DNA from: Bacteroidales bacterium
GTDB taxonomy: Bacteria > Bacteroidota > Bacteroidia > Bacteroidales > VadinHA17
Assembly: GCA_021163295.1 (NCBI GenBank)
Contig: JAGGXD010000182.1
Coordinates: forward strand, 6,316-70,315
DNA: 64,000 nt
Reading direction: 5' to 3'
The notes beneath the pieces were generated by a model. The model ran no database searches, was not told where the DNA came from, and worked only from the letters and a program-made list of their open reading frames with translations. The position numbers and the translations under genes are program-made. Positions 10,922-42,752 of the stretch are shown here, one piece after another; positions within the stretch are counted from its first letter, which is position 1; the number at the start of each line of letters is the position of its first letter.

Positions 10922-10926
10922 AAAAA

Positions 10927-10956
10927 AGCAGTCGGGAAACTACCGGCTGCTTTCTT
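10927..10956 (+). terminator. Intrinsic terminator-like hairpin ending the acyl-CoA operon
   Basis: 9-bp stem AGCAGTCGG/CCGGCTGCT (one G-U), loop GAAACTA, then TTCTT. Starts 6 nt after the stop codon. Confidence 0.6.
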
Positions 10957-10977
10957 ACTGTGAAAAAACTTACATAT

Positions 10978-11202
10978 TTATAGCAATGTCATTAATCTCC
11001 TGATCTTCATAACTGACAATTCACTATAAGCCTTATTGATTTTTTTATCTAACTTATCAATTAAGTTAGTGCCCGGGTTCTTTTCTTCCGGTATATCGGT
11101 TGTGTTAACTGATCGGTCAGGATACATAAGCCTGTCCCTCTCCTTTTCCAGAAACTTAAGCCTGGCCTTCTGATTATTTAACTGTTCTTCAAGATATCCC
11201 AT
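10978..11202 (-). CDS. Small hypothetical coiled-coil protein (74 aa)
   Basis: ORF only. Charged heptad-like sequence (LEEQLNNQKARLKFLEKERDRL). The frame stays open 28 codons upstream of the ATG without another ATG, so it could be a fragment. Confidence 0.25.
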   Translation of the reverse strand: MGYLEEQLNNQKARLKFLEKERDRLMYPDRSVNTTDIPEEKNPGTNLIDKLDKKINKAYSELSVMKIRRLMTLL

Positions 11203-11292
11203 TTTAAGAGTTTTATTATGTGACTCTGATTCTGTAAAACGCTCTCTGAATAAAAGACGATTAACTTTCCATTTAGTTGCAATTTGGATTGA

Positions 11293-13677: not shown

Positions 13678-14022
13678 ATGCAAAACTTAAAGAACAAAGT
13701 TCATCTTATCGGAAACCTTGGAATGGATCCTGAAGTTAAGAAACTGGAAAACGGCAACTCACTTGCTAAATTTTCACTTGCCACATCAGACAGTTATAAA
13801 AATAAAGATGGGGAAAAAGTAGAAGAAACCCAATGGCATAATCTTGTTGCATGGGGACCTAAAGCAGAATTTGCTGAAAAGTACCTTAAAAAAGGACAGC
13901 AAATAGCTGTTGAAGGAAAGCTGACACACAGAACTTATGAGAACCAGGAAGGGAAAAAGCAGTATTATACCGAAGTTGTTGTAAATGATGTACAAATGTT
14001 GCGCTCACCAAACAATGCTTAG
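13678..14022 (+). CDS. ssb: Single-stranded DNA-binding protein, short form lacking acidic C-terminal tail
   Basis: 114-aa OB-fold SSB pattern (NKVHLIGNLGMDPEV..TQWHNLVAWG..KGQQIAVEGKL). It ends ..MLRSPNNA, without a DDDxPF-type tip. Confidence 0.8.
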   Translation: MQNLKNKVHLIGNLGMDPEVKKLENGNSLAKFSLATSDSYKNKDGEKVEETQWHNLVAWGPKAEFAEKYLKKGQQIAVEGKLTHRTYENQEGKKQYYTEVVVNDVQMLRSPNNA

Positions 14023-14052
14023 CATTGTTTGCAAATAGCCGCTTGTAATATC

Positions 14053-14085
14053 AAATGCCGGATCCTAATAAGTTCCGGCATTTTT
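14053..14085. terminator. Hairpin terminator between convergent ssb and ATPase genes
   Basis: 10-bp perfect stem AAATGCCGGA/TCCGGCATTT, 11-nt loop, followed by TTTTT. Confidence 0.7.
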
Positions 14086-14112
14086 ATTATCTAAGATATT
14101 GTAATAAGAACT

Positions 14113-16443
14113 TTATTCAAGACTTCTACTAAGTTCGTCGAAGAGATGGGAAAAATTATCCCTGGTTTCTTCATCCAGGTTACCCCATTTCAATTTGGAA
14201 TCCTTTACCTCGCGCATAAAATTAGATGCAAGAATTGAACGTGACAAATTATTATTAACGATATACTCTAAGTTTGATTCCGGAATCCCAATTCGTTTAT
14301 GAAGTATATATTTCTTAAAGTCGATAGTAGAAAACATATCTTCAATACTTTTGAAATGATCAAATTGAATAAGCTTCTTATTTGCCTCGGCTTCATTATT
14401 GGCAAAAAGATGTTTAGTAAGATCATGCTTCAAATCATTACCTTCTTTATTTGTCCCTGTAAGTACCAGAAAATCAATCCCCCAACCAAGTAACATATTT
14501 ACAAGACTCCTGATATTTGAAACTCCTGTAGCAGGCAGATAAAAAACCTGTTTTTCAAAACCTTTCATGTCGGTAAGAGCTTTCATGTAATAGAAAGTAG
14601 CAATATCTTCAAGAATAATATTGTTTTTTTTCTGGATAAACTTTTGTTCAGACAGTCTTATTCCCATCAATGAATAAATAGGCGATAATGTATCTGTTGA
14701 AGCTGTAGTAAGTGATTTTGTATCAAAAACTTTAGTTTCACTTGATTCATCCTCATCAACAGCTCGTTGAACGGCAAGTAACCTGTACAATTTATTTAGA
14801 TCTATAAGATGTGGGGAATGGGTTGTGTAAATAATCTGGACTCTTTCTTTAATATTATCGAATACTTTTAAAACATCTTCCTGAGCCCTGGCATGAAGAC
14901 TTACTCCGGGTTCATCAATCAGGATTACAATATTACTGCCGTTTTTAGATAACGCTGCTGCCTGTAATTCAAGGTAAAATGAGAGAAACCAACGTACTCC
15001 CCTGCTTCTTTGTTTTGGGTATAGGCGTTCTTCCCTGTCTTTTATCCAGAATTCAATATAGGGCAGTCCGCTTTTATCAGGATTAGAATTATCATAATGT
15101 TCAAGCTCAAAATTGATTTTTATTTTATTATGCTTACCAATACTTTGACGCCAGTAGTCCTGGAAATTTATTGTTATCTCTTTATTTAGCTTTTCTATTT
15201 TATGTTTCAGGATACGGTTATTAGTCTGCTGAAAAAAGTCTTCATTAAGACCAGATACCAGGAGAAAGTTTTTTGCTGCTTTATAGCCTTCAATATTAGT
15301 ATTCTCCGTATGAATATCATGCAAATCGATACGATCAGGAAGAAGACTTAAAAAATCTTCGAAAAATATAAATTCAGGTACATAGTTAAAAAGTTTTCTT
15401 CCGGCTTCTTCAAGAGAATAGTATTTATCGATATAAGGTTTCTCTTTCTTGATTTCATTCTTAACCTCATAAATACTATCACCGGACAGAACTTTGAATG
15501 CAATTATTTTTTTCTGGATTGCATCTTCTTTGCTTTGTTCATAATCACGTAGTACTCTAACATAAGTTTCGTTACTTGAATCAAGCTGAGTTCGTGAAGC
15601 CCTGCGTTCCTTTTCATCATATGACATATCAAAAATACGCTGACATTTTTGAAGTTCTTTATAAGATTCTTCAAGCTCCTTTTTGTTAATCAGGAAGTTC
15701 TTTTCTGCTTGTATACTTTCTCCGGCCAAGTTTGCGTTTTCTGAAAGTTGGCGAGCTTCAGAAGCCAATATTTCAGCATTTTTCCCGGCAGCCACATAAA
15801 TATTCCTGCATTCTTCCAGATGTTTTTTTGCACCGGTTATATTATCTTTAATTGTGTTTTCGTTTTTACCATTTTTTCTTGATTTGTATTTTTTCTGTAA
15901 CTGGGTTAACTTTTCCTTAGCAGCTTCAAGTTCATGGTGTTTTTCTTCTTTTTCGGAAACAGCTTTGTCTGATTTCCTTATAGCATTATCATGTTCACTA
16001 ATAGCCTCTTCTATCCTTTCTTTGATATTTTTTTCCTCTTTTTCTCTTTTATCATAAAAACCTCTATATATCTCAAAAACTTTGTCTCCAGCCAGTTCAA
16101 TACGACTTGTTATATCTTCTCCCCATGATCTCTTGAGAATAATGGTTTCTTTTTTCTTAATTTCATCTATCACTCCGTCCGGTAGTCTTTTCTCATTCAA
16201 TTCTTTTTCAACATCAACCTTTATAATCTCGAAAACACAATGCACACAAGGCAAACTAAGATCACTGCGCAAAATATCTTCGGATATTGTACCGGTAAAA
16301 AAGCTATTAATGGCTTCCAGTATTGACGTTTTGCCTGATTCATTCTGTCCAATTAATCCGGTAATATTATCTGGTGACAGATAAGTACAGCCTGTATCAA
16401 TTATTGACCGGAAATTTTGTATTCTAAACCCAATTAATTTCAT
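14113..16443 (-). CDS. ABC/SMC-like (AAA_15/OLD-family-like) ATPase with long coiled-coil insertion and C-terminal Toprim-like region
   Basis: 776 aa. Walker A (GQNESGKTS, aa 32-40), about 220 aa of charged heptad-rich sequence (aa ~115-335), then RGVRWFLSFYL, Walker B (VILIDEPGVSLH) and TTHSP. The C-terminal NNIILEDIATFYYM..GIDFLVLTGTNKEG resembles the OLD Toprim layout, but TGT sits where DxD is expected. Confidence 0.65.
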   Translation of the reverse strand: MKLIGFRIQNFRSIIDTGCTYLSPDNITGLIGQNESGKTSILEAINSFFTGTISEDILRSDLSLPCVHCVFEIIKVDVEKELNEKRLPDGVIDEIKKKETIILKRSWGEDITSRIELAGDKVFEIYRGFYDKREKEEKNIKERIEEAISEHDNAIRKSDKAVSEKEEKHHELEAAKEKLTQLQKKYKSRKNGKNENTIKDNITGAKKHLEECRNIYVAAGKNAEILASEARQLSENANLAGESIQAEKNFLINKKELEESYKELQKCQRIFDMSYDEKERRASRTQLDSSNETYVRVLRDYEQSKEDAIQKKIIAFKVLSGDSIYEVKNEIKKEKPYIDKYYSLEEAGRKLFNYVPEFIFFEDFLSLLPDRIDLHDIHTENTNIEGYKAAKNFLLVSGLNEDFFQQTNNRILKHKIEKLNKEITINFQDYWRQSIGKHNKIKINFELEHYDNSNPDKSGLPYIEFWIKDREERLYPKQRSRGVRWFLSFYLELQAAALSKNGSNIVILIDEPGVSLHARAQEDVLKVFDNIKERVQIIYTTHSPHLIDLNKLYRLLAVQRAVDEDESSETKVFDTKSLTTASTDTLSPIYSLMGIRLSEQKFIQKKNNIILEDIATFYYMKALTDMKGFEKQVFYLPATGVSNIRSLVNMLLGWGIDFLVLTGTNKEGNDLKHDLTKHLFANNEAEANKKLIQFDHFKSIEDMFSTIDFKKYILHKRIGIPESNLEYIVNNNLSRSILASNFMREVKDSKLKWGNLDEETRDNFSHLFDELSRSLE

Positions 16444-20902: not shown

Positions 20903-21676
20903 TTAATCAATCCAAATTGTATCTTTCCAGGAATTAACAAAAGGTTTAAGATGAGAAGGTACAATACTATACAATTTATTAAAATCAGGTATAGCATCTC
21001 TGTTTTCAGAAAGATTTGTAACATCTTCAGATGGAGGAGGAATATGACACTGACCAATAAATGGTAATAATGCCCAAGGGTCTGTGTTATCCTCAAATTG
21101 TGAAACTAATTCAAGGGCTATTATATTATAAATGACAGGGTTCCTGTAATCTTTAGACCTGCGAATTTTACGAACCTCTTCTTTTATCCATGCATTGGAA
21201 ACCTGATTTTGAACAAGATCAACCTTGTCAACAATTTCTCTTAATTTAACCTTTTTAAGATTTCCAAAATGCTCATAATATTCTTTATATTTTTTATCCG
21301 GAGCATTGATTTCCCATTCACTGCCAAGGAGATCAAGGAAATAGAAAGAGGCAGTATGGCAAATTATTTCTGACAACCAGCTTATTGCTCTTGGGTCACA
21401 GTAGATATGGCAAAGCTCATGCGAAAACTGATATGTTGCTTTTTCAAAAGTATCAAACTCAGTTTGCAAACCAATTTTGTATTTATCTGTTTCAAGAGGC
21501 AGATAGAGTCTGTGATCGTAATACATGTCATTTACCAGATAAATAGGCTTATACCCAAGTGGCGGACCGGTTGGGATTAACCTTTCAAACTCATTAGCGA
21601 TTTGATCAATAACCAATGCAATGGTCATGTTGTATTCATTATTATCCCAAAGATTATAATGTATTTTCCAGTTCAT
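20903..21676 (-). CDS. Hypothetical HExxH (zinc metallopeptidase-like) protein
   Basis: The ORF track starts at a TTG (21724). I prefer the ATG at 21676 (MNWKIHYNLWDNN). It contains FSHELCHIY followed by WLSEIICH (a possible third ligand). I recognise no other domain. Confidence 0.5.
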   Translation of the reverse strand: MNWKIHYNLWDNNEYNMTIALVIDQIANEFERLIPTGPPLGYKPIYLVNDMYYDHRLYLPLETDKYKIGLQTEFDTFEKATYQFSHELCHIYCDPRAISWLSEIICHTASFYFLDLLGSEWEINAPDKKYKEYYEHFGNLKKVKLREIVDKVDLVQNQVSNAWIKEEVRKIRRSKDYRNPVIYNIIALELVSQFEDNTDPWALLPFIGQCHIPPPSEDVTNLSENRDAIPDFNKLYSIVPSHLKPFVNSWKDTIWID

Positions 21677-21744
21677 ATTGTTTTTTTTATTAATAAATAT
21701 AATAAGAAAAAAGAGAAATTCCAAGTTTATTATAAATCTTTAAA

Positions 21745-22122
21745 ACACAAATGGGAACATCTTCGTTTGAAGAATGCTCCCATTTAACTTTTTGATTCCC
21801 GTAGGTTTCTAAAGTTCCAAGCTACGGTTATTATGGTTTCTGTCTGTCCAACTTGCACCTTTCAGCTCAAGCTTTTTTTACATCTGAACCGGTCATTGGT
21901 CCCCTCCGAAGAGTTTCACATCCACCGGTTCTGGCTTTTATAGGCCTCTTTTACACCTGGTTCTTTCGAACCCGACATGCAAGAGTTTCATCTGTACTTT
22001 GATCTACTCCTAAGAGTTGATCTTTCAAGATTAACCTTTTCAGGTGGGTTCTGCTTCCGATCAACCTAAGCTTTTCTTTCACAGATCCAAACCTTTCAAG
22101 CCTACCTTTTATCTCTCACTTG
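21745..22122 (-). ncRNA. Candidate ~375-nt structured RNA of unknown class (stand-alone sRNA or giant leader)
   Basis: ORF-free. GC is 43-52% in sampled lines versus ~30-38% nearby, and the minus strand is purine-rich. Multiple perfect helices are capped by GAAA or UUCG tetraloops, between a TAnnTTTG promoter and a 16-bp terminator hairpin (see finding). Confidence 0.55.
21749..21785 (-). terminator. Strong intrinsic terminator hairpin at the 3' end of the RNA candidate
   Basis: Minus strand reads AAATGGGAGCAT-T-CTTC-AAAC-GAAG-ATGTTCCCATTT (16 bp, one G-U, one bulge), followed by GUGUUUUA. Confidence 0.7.
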
Positions 22123-22128
22123 GTAGAT

Positions 22129-22160
22129 CAAATATAGATTTTTACAACTTCCTATGCAAT
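22129..22160 (-). promoter_or_regulatory. Bacteroidota-type promoter for the RNA candidate
   Basis: Minus strand: TTG (22159-22157), 20-nt spacer, then TATATTTG (22136-22129), matching the TAnnTTTG -7 consensus. Confidence 0.5.
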
Positions 22161-22189
22161 TGTTTTAATGAAATACAATAAACAAAAAA

Positions 22190-22216
22190 TTAACAATAGT
22201 TATTAACAATTGTTAA
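22190..22216. promoter_or_regulatory. Perfect 14-bp palindrome TTAACAATTGTTAA plus an extra upstream half-site (candidate operator)
   Basis: TTAACAAT at 22190-22197. The palindrome TTAACAATTGTTAA at 22203-22216 lies between the RNA promoter and accC. Confidence 0.4.
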
Positions 22217-22296
22217 TATTGCATATAAAGTGAAAAAATGATAAAACGAGTAAATGTAAAGATTAGTAAATGGGAAAAGATGAAGTTGTAACTTTA

Positions 22297-22317
22297 GGCA
22301 TTTCAGGCATTTCAGGC
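22297..22317 (+). repeat. 9-bp tandem repeat GGCATTTCA x2.3
   Basis: ggcatttca ggcatttca ggc, read directly, within a C-poor stretch upstream of accC. Confidence 0.7.
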
Positions 22318-22401
22318 TCTTTAGACATTCCTTCATATCAATTAATTTGCGATTAACAAATTTTAATATATATCTTTACCTTTTTAGATAAAGACTTTTC
22401 T

Positions 22402-23916
22402 ATGATCAAGAAAATCCTAATCGCTAACCGTGGAGAGATTGCAGTAAGGGTTATCAGGTCGTGCCACGAAATGGGAATTAATACAGTAGCGGTCTTCTCG
22501 GAAGCTGACAGGAAATCACTACATGTCAGATATGCTGATGAAGCATATTGTATTGGTCCCCCACCCTCAACAGAAAGTTATTTAAGAATTGACAAAATCC
22601 TGGAAGTTGCTAAAAAAACAAAATCAGATGCAATTCATCCCGGATATGGATTTTTATCTGAGAATCCTGAATTTTCCCGCAGGATAAAGGAATCAGGTTT
22701 AATTTTTATCGGGCCTTCAGAGTTTTCCATTCGAAATATGGGAGACAAGATCAGCGCAAGGCAAATTATGATAAAAGCAGGCGTTCCTGTGGTTCCGGGT
22801 ACAAAAGAAAAAATATTGAATAAAAAGCAAGCATTGAATACTGTTGAAAATATTGGTCTTCCGGTCATGATTAAAGCAGCCTCGGGAGGTGGGGGAAAAG
22901 GAATGCGCCTTGTTAAAAAGAAAGAAATGGTTTGGGAATCAGTGCAAGCTGCAAAATCTGAAGCTCTGGATTCATTTGGAGATGATTCAGTATATGTTGA
23001 GAAATATATTGGATATCCCCATCATATTGAATTTCAGATTTTAGCTGACCAGCATGGAAATATTATTCACTTGTTTGAGAGAGAGTGTTCTGTTCAACGA
23101 AGACATCAGAAAATTATTGAAGAGACACCAAGTCCTTTGTTAACGGATAATTTGCGGCAGGAAATGGGTAAATGTGCTATAGATGCCGCAAAGGCTGTAA
23201 ATTACGAAGGTGCCGGAACTATTGAATTCCTTGTTGATAAGGACTTGAACTATTATTTCCTTGAGATGAATACCAGACTTCAGGTGGAACATCCGGTTAC
23301 TGAAAATGTTACCGGTATTGACCTGGTAAAAGAACAAATTAAAATTGCCGGGGGACAAAAGCTTTCTTATCAGCAAAATGAGGTTTATCAAAAAGGACAT
23401 TCTATTGAATGCCGTATATATGCTGAAGACTCGGATAATAATTTTATGCCAAGCCCGGGTATAATAACAAAAATGACTGAGCCATCAGGGATTGGTGTTA
23501 GAATTGATGGCTATGTTTTTGAGAATTTTGAAGTACCTGTTTTTTACGACCCACTGATATCAAAGCTCATAACTTATGGAAGAAACAGGGAAGAAGCAAT
23601 AAACAGAATGAAGAGATGTCTGGATGAATACTACCTGACAGGGGTTAAAACTTCTCTGCATTTTCTCAGCAGAATAATGGAAACACCTGATTTTGTTGAA
23701 GGCAAGTATAATACCCATTTTATAGAGCAAAACCACAATTTTCTTTTTAATTCATTTAATGGGGATGATATCATGAAGAGTACAGAAGATATGGTTGCAA
23801 TAGTATCTTTGCTCGAGTATGAATCAAATATGCACCAAAAATCAGGAAATAACCATTCATCTTCACATAATCCATGGAAAGAATTTGGGAGAAAATTAGG
23901 AATTACCAGGTTATGA
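22402..23916 (+). CDS. accC: Biotin carboxylase subunit of acyl-CoA carboxylase
   Basis: 504-aa ATP-grasp BC motifs (ILIANRGEIAVRVIRSCHEMGI, KAASGGGGKGMRLV, EMNTRLQVEHPVTE). Confidence 0.9.
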   Translation: MIKKILIANRGEIAVRVIRSCHEMGINTVAVFSEADRKSLHVRYADEAYCIGPPPSTESYLRIDKILEVAKKTKSDAIHPGYGFLSENPEFSRRIKESGLIFIGPSEFSIRNMGDKISARQIMIKAGVPVVPGTKEKILNKKQALNTVENIGLPVMIKAASGGGGKGMRLVKKKEMVWESVQAAKSEALDSFGDDSVYVEKYIGYPHHIEFQILADQHGNIIHLFERECSVQRRHQKIIEETPSPLLTDNLRQEMGKCAIDAAKAVNYEGAGTIEFLVDKDLNYYFLEMNTRLQVEHPVTENVTGIDLVKEQIKIAGGQKLSYQQNEVYQKGHSIECRIYAEDSDNNFMPSPGIITKMTEPSGIGVRIDGYVFENFEVPVFYDPLISKLITYGRNREEAINRMKRCLDEYYLTGVKTSLHFLSRIMETPDFVEGKYNTHFIEQNHNFLFNSFNGDDIMKSTEDMVAIVSLLEYESNMHQKSGNNHSSSHNPWKEFGRKLGITRL

Positions 23917-37231: not shown

Positions 37232-37490
37232 TGAATCAGAAATAAGATATCTAACCCCCCCTACAGTTGAGGTCAAAAAAGATAAATACTGTCGGTTCCT
37301 TAAAAACAAGATCAAATATATTGATTATAAAGATCCGGAATTTCTAAAAAAATTCCTTAACGAACAAGGAAAAATTCTGCCCAGGAGAATAACCGGAACT
37401 TCGCTTAAGTATCAAAGAAAAGTAGCACAAGCTGTTAAAAGAGCTCGCCACCTGGCACTATTGCCATATGTTACAGACATGCTAAAATAG
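37224..37490 (+). CDS. rpsR: 30S ribosomal protein S18
   Basis: 88 aa. [50 protein letters not shown]. 8-nt overlap with rpsF. Confidence 0.9.
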
Positions 37491-37503
37491 AGGAGGGATA
37501 TAA

Positions 37504-42679: not shown

Positions 42680-42752
42680 GATTCAGTAGCTCAGTTGGTA
42701 GAGCACATCCCTTTTAAGGATGGGGTCCTGGGTTCGAGACCCAGCTGGATCA
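42680..42752 (+). tRNA. tRNA-Lys (anticodon UUU)
   Basis: Hand-folded cloverleaf. Acceptor GATTCAG/CTGGATC (one G-U), D-arm GCTC..GAGC, anticodon stem CATCC/GGATG with loop CTTTTAA (TTT at 42713-42715), T-arm CTGGG-TTCGAGA-CCCAG. CCA is not encoded. Confidence 0.9.

Follow-up and report, generated by a model that had tools for sequence, protein, structure and literature searches.

The 64,000-nucleotide (nt) stretch of contig JAGGXD010000182.1 from a Bacteroidales bacterium that is analyzed here (the window, within which all positions are counted) contains a non-coding RNA gene of ~383 nt, the product of which is large and structured and does not match any catalogued RNA family. The gene lies on the minus strand, upstream of a gene for a 257-amino-acid (aa) protein with an HExxH motif, and we read it, with a probability of roughly 0.6, as the gene of a structured RNA that stands alone, is regulated, acts in trans and represents a new family. 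Comparison of homologous sequences establishes that the gene exists and is conserved, which strand it uses, how the RNA folds in secondary structure, which signals it carries and that it is independent of the HExxH gene. The sequence-only reading that preceded this analysis had proposed an orphan RNA, structured and non-coding, that has a promoter and a terminator of its own and belongs to no recognizable class, and in this it is fully supported.

Homologues, composition and a covarying fold

The RNA is flanked by two AT-rich spacers and occupies a gap that had been described as free of open reading frames (ORFs) of at least 60 aa, and indeed none lies inside it, a 61-aa ORF starting with TTG (21602-21787, plus strand) only clipping its edge; the genes on either side have consecutive NCBI protein accessions, which means that the gap carries no annotation at NCBI. 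The G+C (GC) fraction of the RNA is 0.415, compared with 0.356 for the whole window, and the hand-counted values that had drawn attention to it were exact (0.433 for 21841-21900 and 0.517 for 21901-21960); the enrichment is thus real, but the accompanying description of the most GC-rich non-coding stretch goes slightly too far, as the RNA ranks second among the intergenic stretches of the window, slightly below the tRNA region at 42.6 kb. Other intergenic stretches with raised GC (0.44-0.46 over 120 nt) are found at 2336-2806, 10922-11292 and 37232-37503, none of which has an Rfam match at the gathering threshold. The minus strand of the RNA is, as had been noticed, purine-rich (61.6%), and its single sequence folds at -113 kcal/mol compared with a shuffle value of -88.4 (z = -4.65); folding is poorer for the plus strand.

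Relatives were collected starting from the homologues of the 257-aa protein, whose syntenic loci (L003-L008; loci other than the window are given L numbers) carry the RNA upstream of that gene. A 21-base search pattern taken from the conserved 3' region, AATAACNGTANCTNGG-N8-16-CCTACGGG, matched 10 species-representative genomes (Rikenellaceae, Bacteroidales and Bacteroidota metagenome-assembled genomes (MAGs), the complete Bacteroidales chromosome CP070687.1 and one “Chlorobiota” MAG) and 12 JGI metagenome contigs, and no match was found in the viral contigs scanned with it. All 22 pattern matches were true homologues by nhmmer, with E-values of 1e-14 to 1e-158 for these and the syntenic loci taken together, and the homologue profile run against the window matched exactly the 383 nt of the RNA (E = 2e-96), which is a single-copy element both there and in each locus examined. 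Two more divergent members, L037 and L038, were reached via homologues of the neighboring biotin carboxylase and do not contain the exact 21-base pattern, so that the pattern scan underestimates the family, whose known range is to be taken as a lower bound. Altogether, 24 distinct full-length homologues of 378-532 nt and four fragments are at hand, the first set of 22 matching 67-97% of the window RNA bases identically. As source habitats, the sequence records mention subsurface, sediment and TARA samples.

For the 24 sequences, RNAalifold predicted 81 pairs, 56 of which show compensatory changes. When an explicit structure of 82 pairs was scored on the same sequences, 94.5% of the cells were paired (33-55% in slid-partner controls) and 57 pairs had changes on both sides (16-27 in the controls), with none of 500 shuffles reaching the observed values for either pairing or double changes; because the sequences are related, such cell counts make independent events look more numerous than they are, although this relatedness is retained in the slid-partner control. 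An alignment of 22 sequences gave a similar pairing result. The cells with G-U (195) far outnumber those with A-C (18), which places the RNA on the minus strand, and the GNRA and UNCG loops make sense on this strand only.

The architecture (Table 1) is defined by the long-range helices P1-P5, which the sequence-only reading had overlooked; P1, P2 and P3 close the body of the fold, and the remaining helices extend from it. All cells of P1 are paired, with an A-U to G-C change in L007, and its pair between G21822 and U22118 is U-G in 17 sequences and U-A in 7; the 3' strand of P1 is preceded by a conserved joining strand, CAUAAUAACCGUA (21823-21835), as P2 is by the near-invariant AG.GAUAAAAG (22107-22116). 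Double changes were seen in two pairs of P3 (in the clade of L016, L026, L037 and L038), in all four pairs of P4 (A-U in 13 and G-C in 11 sequences; C-G in 12 and U-A in 10), in 15 pairs of P6 and P7 together, and in P8 in 8/8 outer and 3/3 inner pairs, while the last pair of P5 occurs as five different pair types across the homologues. The hairpin P9 has its loop followed by G in every member, the loop being GAAA or, in a few, GAAAA or GCAA; its stems have clade-specific sequences whose complementarity is kept, and it stands outside the formal pair count because MAFFT does not place these stems in register. Inside P10, the near-invariant CCUACGGG (21798-21805) forms a hairpin of 2-3 pairs with a UACG loop, whose closing pair is C-G in 22 sequences and U-A in two (L037 and L038). 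The most conserved bases of the RNA are not in the stems; they are those of the joining strands AG.GAUAAAAG, UUUAAARA, CAGA and CAUAAUAAC and of this small CC-UACG-GG hairpin.

Four of the local helices proposed beforehand have found their place in this fold: covariation supports GGTTC-GAAA-GAACC closed by CTCTT/AAGAG, which is P7, CTC-UUCG-GAG nested in GAACCGGT/ACCGGTTC, which is P8, and the GAAA-capped AGCTTG/CAAGTT hairpin, which is P9 and present in all members. Two others were given up, GTTGATC/GATCAAC because only 64% of its cells pair and its bases belong to other, covarying helices, and CCGTAG/CTACGG as drawn because G21822 pairs in P1 and CCUACGGG folds into the UACG-loop hairpin of its own. 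The exact 10-nt repeat TGAAACTCTT is present at 21990-21981 and 21918-21909 as described, but both copies are found in the window and L027 only, which makes it a peculiarity of this subclade and not a trait of the family. Two further pairings were tried and rejected: a long-range pseudoknot of AACCGUA with UACGG, which shows no covariation and has an A-G mismatch in 5/22 sequences, was dropped in favor of the local CC-UACG-GG hairpin since the latter shows the C-G to U-A change, and a pairing of the 5' AAAAGG with CCUUU breaks, on reading the alignments, at a covarying position.

One arm of the RNA, P4b, is optional; in L028, L017, L021 and L023, the nearest relatives of the window that differ in RNA length (RNAs of 499-501 nt; L017:1198-1697 is the L017 counterpart), it adds 116-118 nt exactly at the P4 junction, and it has versions of 50-130 nt in other clades. 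The window shares with L027 and L034 a clean loss of the arm, P4 enclosing just one hairpin in them, so the window copy is a naturally minimized form. The rest of the RNA in this arm-less trio still compensates, as in GGUU/AACC of the window becoming GGCU/AGCC in L027. The arm-less genomes are also without the SRAP gene that comes after the HExxH gene in relatives, and no SRAP homologue was found within the 64-kb window.

Could the locus be something other than an RNA gene, i.e., a protein-coding gene in decay, the gene of a small protein, or a mobile element or repeat? Long stop-free stretches do occur in some purine-rich homologues (up to 173 codons in L026), but the longest open stretch moves to another strand, frame and position from one close relative to the next, Pfam has no match for the small ORFs, close relatives differ in length by 1-2 nt, and the variation is concentrated in compensatory pairs; no frame is conserved among the homologues, and a coding gene or pseudogene was rejected on this ground. 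Against a mobile element speak the single copy, the absence of tandem repeats inside 21742-22124 and the lack of similarity to phages, plasmids or viral contigs, and a miniature inverted-repeat transposable element (MITE) was likewise rejected, the 23-nt flanking inverted repeat being no better than in shuffles and absent in relatives. We consider the chances of all such explanations to be negligible.

Almost equally small is the chance that the RNA is a very divergent member of a known family, for which its RNase P-like size and closing helix, its many GNRA loops and the identity of CCUACGGG to a conserved segment of 16S ribosomal RNA (rRNA) might be adduced. Rfam 15 (4227 covariance models, including RNase P, tmRNA, 6S, SRP, riboswitches, OLE, GOLLD, ROOL and raiA), however, returned at the gathering score only the tRNA at 42680 for the whole window, at E ≤ 10 only noise of 7-23 bits for the RNA region and only noise for the L017 and L016 RNAs, and at E ≤ 1 no match for seven homologous loci, which agrees with the earlier remark that no class recognizable from the sequence fitted. 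ARAGORN found no tmRNA or tRNA genes in 21500-22450, and familiar signature motifs, such as the P4 sequence of RNase P (GGAAAGUCC), were not seen on reading the sequence. CCUACGGG equals the core of the 16S rRNA segment used for the 341F primer, which folds into a UACG-loop hairpin in rRNA as well; the identity is probably a coincidence. Searching for the traits of a type III toxin–antitoxin RNA or a retron revealed neither tandem repeats in 21742-22124 nor a neighboring reverse transcriptase or endoribonuclease, and a full-text literature search found no description of such an RNA.

Transcription signals and neighboring genes

The Bacteroidota-type promoter that had been proposed (TTG and TATATTTG) is present and conserved across the homologues, the -7 box being aligned in all 20 loci as a near-invariant TAT[AT]TTT[GA] at a constant distance to the conserved 5' end of the RNA, ACCAAGUGAG, and the -33 TTG likewise keeping its distance to that end in every locus; TAnnTTTG is the consensus known from Bacteroides promoters. 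The proposed terminator hairpin with its GUGUUUU tract is likewise in place and covarying: 9 of its 15 pairs have double changes, 94.4% of cells are paired, and its stability amounts to -20 to -26 kcal/mol in those homologues whose terminator is complete. As the conserved block ends at the borders of promoter and terminator, it is bounded, as would be expected of an independent gene, by a conserved promoter and a Rho-independent terminator of its own.

Upstream of the promoter, a perfect palindrome, TTATTAACAATTGTTAATAA, with the core TAAC-N4-GTTA is found at -91/-92 from the RNA start in 20/22 loci, and 11 loci have a second, overlapping TAAC-N4-GTTA site at -78. The distance of this operator to the RNA start is constant, whereas that to the ATG of the divergent biotin carboxylase gene varies (256-320 nt), and in L005 and L006, where the carboxylase gene is not adjacent, both operator and RNA are intact; the constant distance and the retention in L005 assign the operator to the RNA promoter. 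The putative operator TTAACAATTGTTAA is likely bound by a dedicated dimeric DNA-binding regulator. Published LexA-like boxes of Bacteroidetes (GGA-N5-TCC and CTAA-N5-TTAG; PMC8565304) occur neither in the RNA promoter nor in the gap that follows the RNA.

This arrangement bears directly on the idea of a stand-alone RNA tied to the divergent acyl-CoA carboxylase operon, with which it would be co-regulated via a shared operator and on whose expression or enzyme it would act. The divergent biotin carboxylase, adjoining the RNA wherever the contig extends except in L005 and L006, is the one constant of the neighborhood, down to 60% carboxylase identity, and in the window clade a third operator-like copy, ATTAACAAATTTTAATAT (22352-22369), lies 33 nt before the carboxylase ATG. 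That copy is restricted to this one clade, however; the operator keeps its distance to the RNA start and not to the carboxylase start, the two loci without an adjacent carboxylase have lost neither RNA nor operator, reading the sequences brought up no evident complementarity to the 5' region of the carboxylase gene that would be conserved (it was not computed), and the adjacency may be nothing but inherited gene order. A carboxylase-bound role thus seems to us quite improbable.

The spacer between operator and carboxylase gene also contains a perfect tandem repeat, AGGCATTTC x 2.4 (22296-22317), variants of which occur only in L027 and L034. In L036, the sequence upstream of the biotin carboxylase gene to the contig end (L036:1-376) is a long microsatellite-like array of GGAATGATGGAAT-type units.

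Table 1. Positions of the RNA, its helices, its signals and its neighbors in the window
Feature	Position	Strand	Description
RNA	21742..22124	-	From the start deduced at A22124 to the end of the U-tract at 21742, based on promoter and terminator
P1	22118..22123 CCAAGU with 21817..21822 GCUUGG	-	Closes the whole fold; strands ~300 nt apart
P2	GGU 22104..22106 with ACC 21835-21837	-	Third pair C-G in 14, U-A in 10
P3	GCUU 22098..22101 with AAGC 21934-21937	-	100% paired
P4 domain	22042..22094; stem AGGU 22091-22094 with ACCU 22042-22045	-	Encloses one hairpin
P5	AAAGGU 22034-22039 with GCCUAU 21940-21945	-	Encloses P6 and P7; 98.6% paired
P6	22001-22022	-	Hairpin within P5
P7	21946-21985	-	CTCTT...GGTTC-GAAA-GAACC...AAGAG, within P5
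P8	21886..21931	-	GAACCGGU/ACCGGUUC; inner CUC-UUCG-GAG hairpin
P9	21850..21873	-	Hairpin capped by a GAAA tetraloop
P10	21786..21816; AACUU 21812-21816 with AAGUU 21786-21790	-	4/5 pairs with double changes
Intrinsic terminator	21742..21785	-	Stem 21785-21749, then GUGUUUU
-7 box of the RNA promoter	22129..22136	-	TATATTTG, Bacteroidota TAnnTTTG type
-33 TTG of the RNA promoter	22157-22159	-	Part of the RNA promoter
Upstream operator (putative)	22189..22219		Palindrome TATTAACAATTGTTAATA (22201-22218) and an overlapping second TAAC-N4-GTTA site
Downstream-gene promoter (predicted)	21694..21724	-	TTG 21722-21724, 20 nt, TATATTTA 21694-21701
Gene of the 257-aa protein	20903..21676	-	HELCH motif; neighbor, not part of the RNA
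Biotin carboxylase gene	22402..23916	+	Divergent neighbor, by Pfam; first of an operon of biotin carboxylase, BCCP and carboxyltransferase

The gene that follows the RNA differs between lineages, being that of the HExxH protein in many loci, a beta-lactamase-like one in L014, L018 and L020, SRAP in L019, L033, L037 and L038, and yet another gene in L026; ancestrally, the RNA probably stood between the carboxylase operon and SRAP. The TATATTTA box of the near-consensus promoter that comes after the terminator and before the ATG is kept in the window, L027, L034, L028, L017, L021, L023 and L004, a generic promoter scan also finding TTGGAA-17-TATATT there, and the clade of L005, L019 and L033 has a TAACTTTG box in the same place after the terminator. 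The gap from terminator to ATG is 65 nt in the window and 105-111 nt in L027, L034 and L028, ~42 nt that come just after the terminator in these three missing from the window copy.

The 257-aa protein had been called the product of an orphan HExxH gene, which is inexact: no Pfam or NCBIfam family matches it, but it has at least 43 homologues, and 22 of 32 aligned members have QExxR instead, the two HExxH histidines being present in 10 and 9 members, respectively. Its AlphaFold structure model (predicted local distance difference test score, pLDDT, of 91) has weak fold matches only, to M1 aminopeptidase-type and other zincin folds. The HExxH members mostly adjoin the RNA, and the QExxR members sit after an aminoacyl-tRNA synthetase gene, a distribution that suggests an active and an inactivated subfamily. 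In L009, L010 and L013, HExxH homologues of ~40% identity are found 220 nt after a tRNA-synt_2 aminoacyl-tRNA synthetase gene, and no copy of the RNA lies within 5 kb of them.

Elsewhere in the window, an SSB gene is followed by a gene for a 776-aa AAA_15/AAA_21 ATPase on the opposite strand (13678-16443), and the pair is kept beside a SpoIIE phosphatase gene in L002 and L003. Such combinations of an SSB with an AAA_15/AAA_21 ATPase are often seen in defense or abortive-infection loci.

A stand-alone gene weighed against a leader

If the RNA is a stand-alone one, its transcription would start ~5 nt after the Bacteroidota -7 box, would probably be modulated by a dimeric DNA-binding protein at the palindromic operator fixed at -91, and would end at the strong intrinsic terminator, the transcript then folding into a compact multi-domain body in which P1, P2 and P3 would join the 5' end to the middle and to the 3' region, with P4-P10 radiating from it. 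Because conservation peaks in the purine-rich joining strands and the CC-UACG-GG hairpin, we infer a core with tertiary structure that would bind a protein or small ligand as its partner or else catalyze a reaction, with the RNA acting in trans. We do not think that antisense pairing or a switch for the next gene is its mode of action.

The sequence-only reading had left two possibilities side by side, a stand-alone RNA or an unusually large terminator-controlled leader of the HExxH gene, of which the first is now favored and the second is unsupported as stated. The stand-alone RNA is favored because promoter and operator are conserved and the terminator is strong and covarying without any conserved pairing that competes with it, because the downstream gene differs between lineages and the HExxH gene has a promoter of its own, and because the ~40%-identity HExxH homologues sit elsewhere without the RNA; a leader specific to the HExxH gene was rejected on the last two grounds.

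There remains the more general proposal of a giant cis-acting leader (riboswitch-like or a protein-bound attenuator), in which the P1-closed fold would sense a signal and set the read-through into co-oriented genes, ancestrally SRAP and in the window the HExxH gene. The points in its favor weigh at the same time against a stand-alone RNA: the downstream gene is co-oriented with the RNA in all 24 loci, SRAP follows directly in four of them, and in L038 the SRAP start codon comes a mere 22 nt after the U-tract, so that any read-through transcripts there would carry the RNA as a 5' leader. An aptamer-like closure by P1, a linker of 30 nt and a terminator are, furthermore, also the layout of a transcriptional riboswitch, and the SRAP gene (COG2135) of Bacteroidetes has been predicted to belong to the SOS response (PMC8565304), to which tight control would be well suited. 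It should also be kept in mind that the RNA ends, the abundance of the RNA and the efficiency of the terminator are deduced from sequence, that the fixed site beside the carboxylase operon could reflect a local role (in cis or through co-regulation), and that the synteny arguments are not independent of each other, since the members are related lineages with a shared gene order.

Several observations nevertheless count against the leader. An antiterminator, or any other conserved pairing competing with the 15-pair terminator, was not found: the best duplexes of the terminator 5' arm with upstream RNA are scattered (positions 81-458, depending on the sequence) and reach -8 to -17 kcal/mol, compared with -20 to -26 for the terminator, except in the truncated L016 extract. 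Nor is there a constant class of downstream gene, the second trait to be expected of a riboswitch or attenuator, let alone a universal downstream gene; the gap from terminator to start codon varies from 22 to ~630 nt, and conserved -7 boxes (TATATTTA and TAACTTTG) come after the terminator in two clades. The RNA also remains under structural selection where SRAP is gone, as in the window clade, which has lost both SRAP and P4b and in which the RNA still undergoes compensatory change. Finally, a length of 380-530 nt would exceed that of any known riboswitch aptamer by far. On balance, a leader of this kind appears unlikely to us, and its less specific form, a leader for whatever gene follows, ancestrally SRAP, is retained as the weaker rival of the stand-alone RNA.

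Meaning and comparison with known RNAs

New large bacterial RNAs with complex folds proven by covariation are rare, and RNase P, riboswitches, OLE, GOLLD and ROOL each opened up new biochemistry. It is conceivable, if rather doubtful, that this RNA founds a new large functional class, be it a ribozyme or a ligand- or protein-binding machine built around a core of invariant junctions or, alternatively, the largest signal-sensing leader so far known, passing some signal on to SRAP and its neighbors; in the latter case, DNA damage would be a plausible signal, as SRAP is a predicted SOS gene. Although the known distribution is narrow and the functional clues are limited to neighbors, the 383-nt minimal form is small enough for direct structural and biochemical study, the optional arm provides a natural deletion series, and the apparent dedicated operator should lead to the regulator. 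That all of this sat in an unannotated gap of an uncultured representative of Bacteroidota shows what standard annotation misses.

Among the systems that invite comparison, bacterial RNase P RNA of type A resembles the RNA in its ~350-400 nt, the closing helix between its ends, its conserved joining strands and its losable peripheral arms, whereas the RNA described here fails the Rfam models, has no P4 signature, belongs to one lineage instead of being universal and has an upstream operator, which suggests regulation. With transcriptional (terminator-type) riboswitches it shares the P1-closed, sensor-like fold, the short linker, the intrinsic terminator and the co-oriented gene, but it has no conserved alternative pairing of the terminator, its downstream gene class varies and has a separate promoter, and it is 2-4x the size of the largest aptamers.

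Ornate large RNA classes of bacteria are regarded as rare (PMC11109978), and those of OLE, GOLLD and ROOL are alike in their hundreds of nucleotides, many covarying helices, GNRA loops and optional peripheral domains, as well as in having a narrow phylogenetic range and having been found by comparative genomics; the RNA of the window is smaller, has no Rfam match, is located neither in a prophage nor in an OLE-type operon, and is hosted by uncultured Bacteroidota. The raiA motif RNA of Bacillota and Actinomycetota, for its part, also has an intricate conserved fold, is located immediately before a protein gene of the same orientation, and has raised the same question of leader or gene, even though our RNA has no Rfam match to it, occurs in another phylum, is longer (380-530 nt compared with ~200 nt) and does not have a constant neighbor gene. 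Ornate large bacterial RNAs have reportedly been studied by cryo-EM (PMC12286853). The raiA RNA was at first taken for a possible leader and nowadays counts as an independent non-coding RNA that has both a promoter and a terminator of its own.

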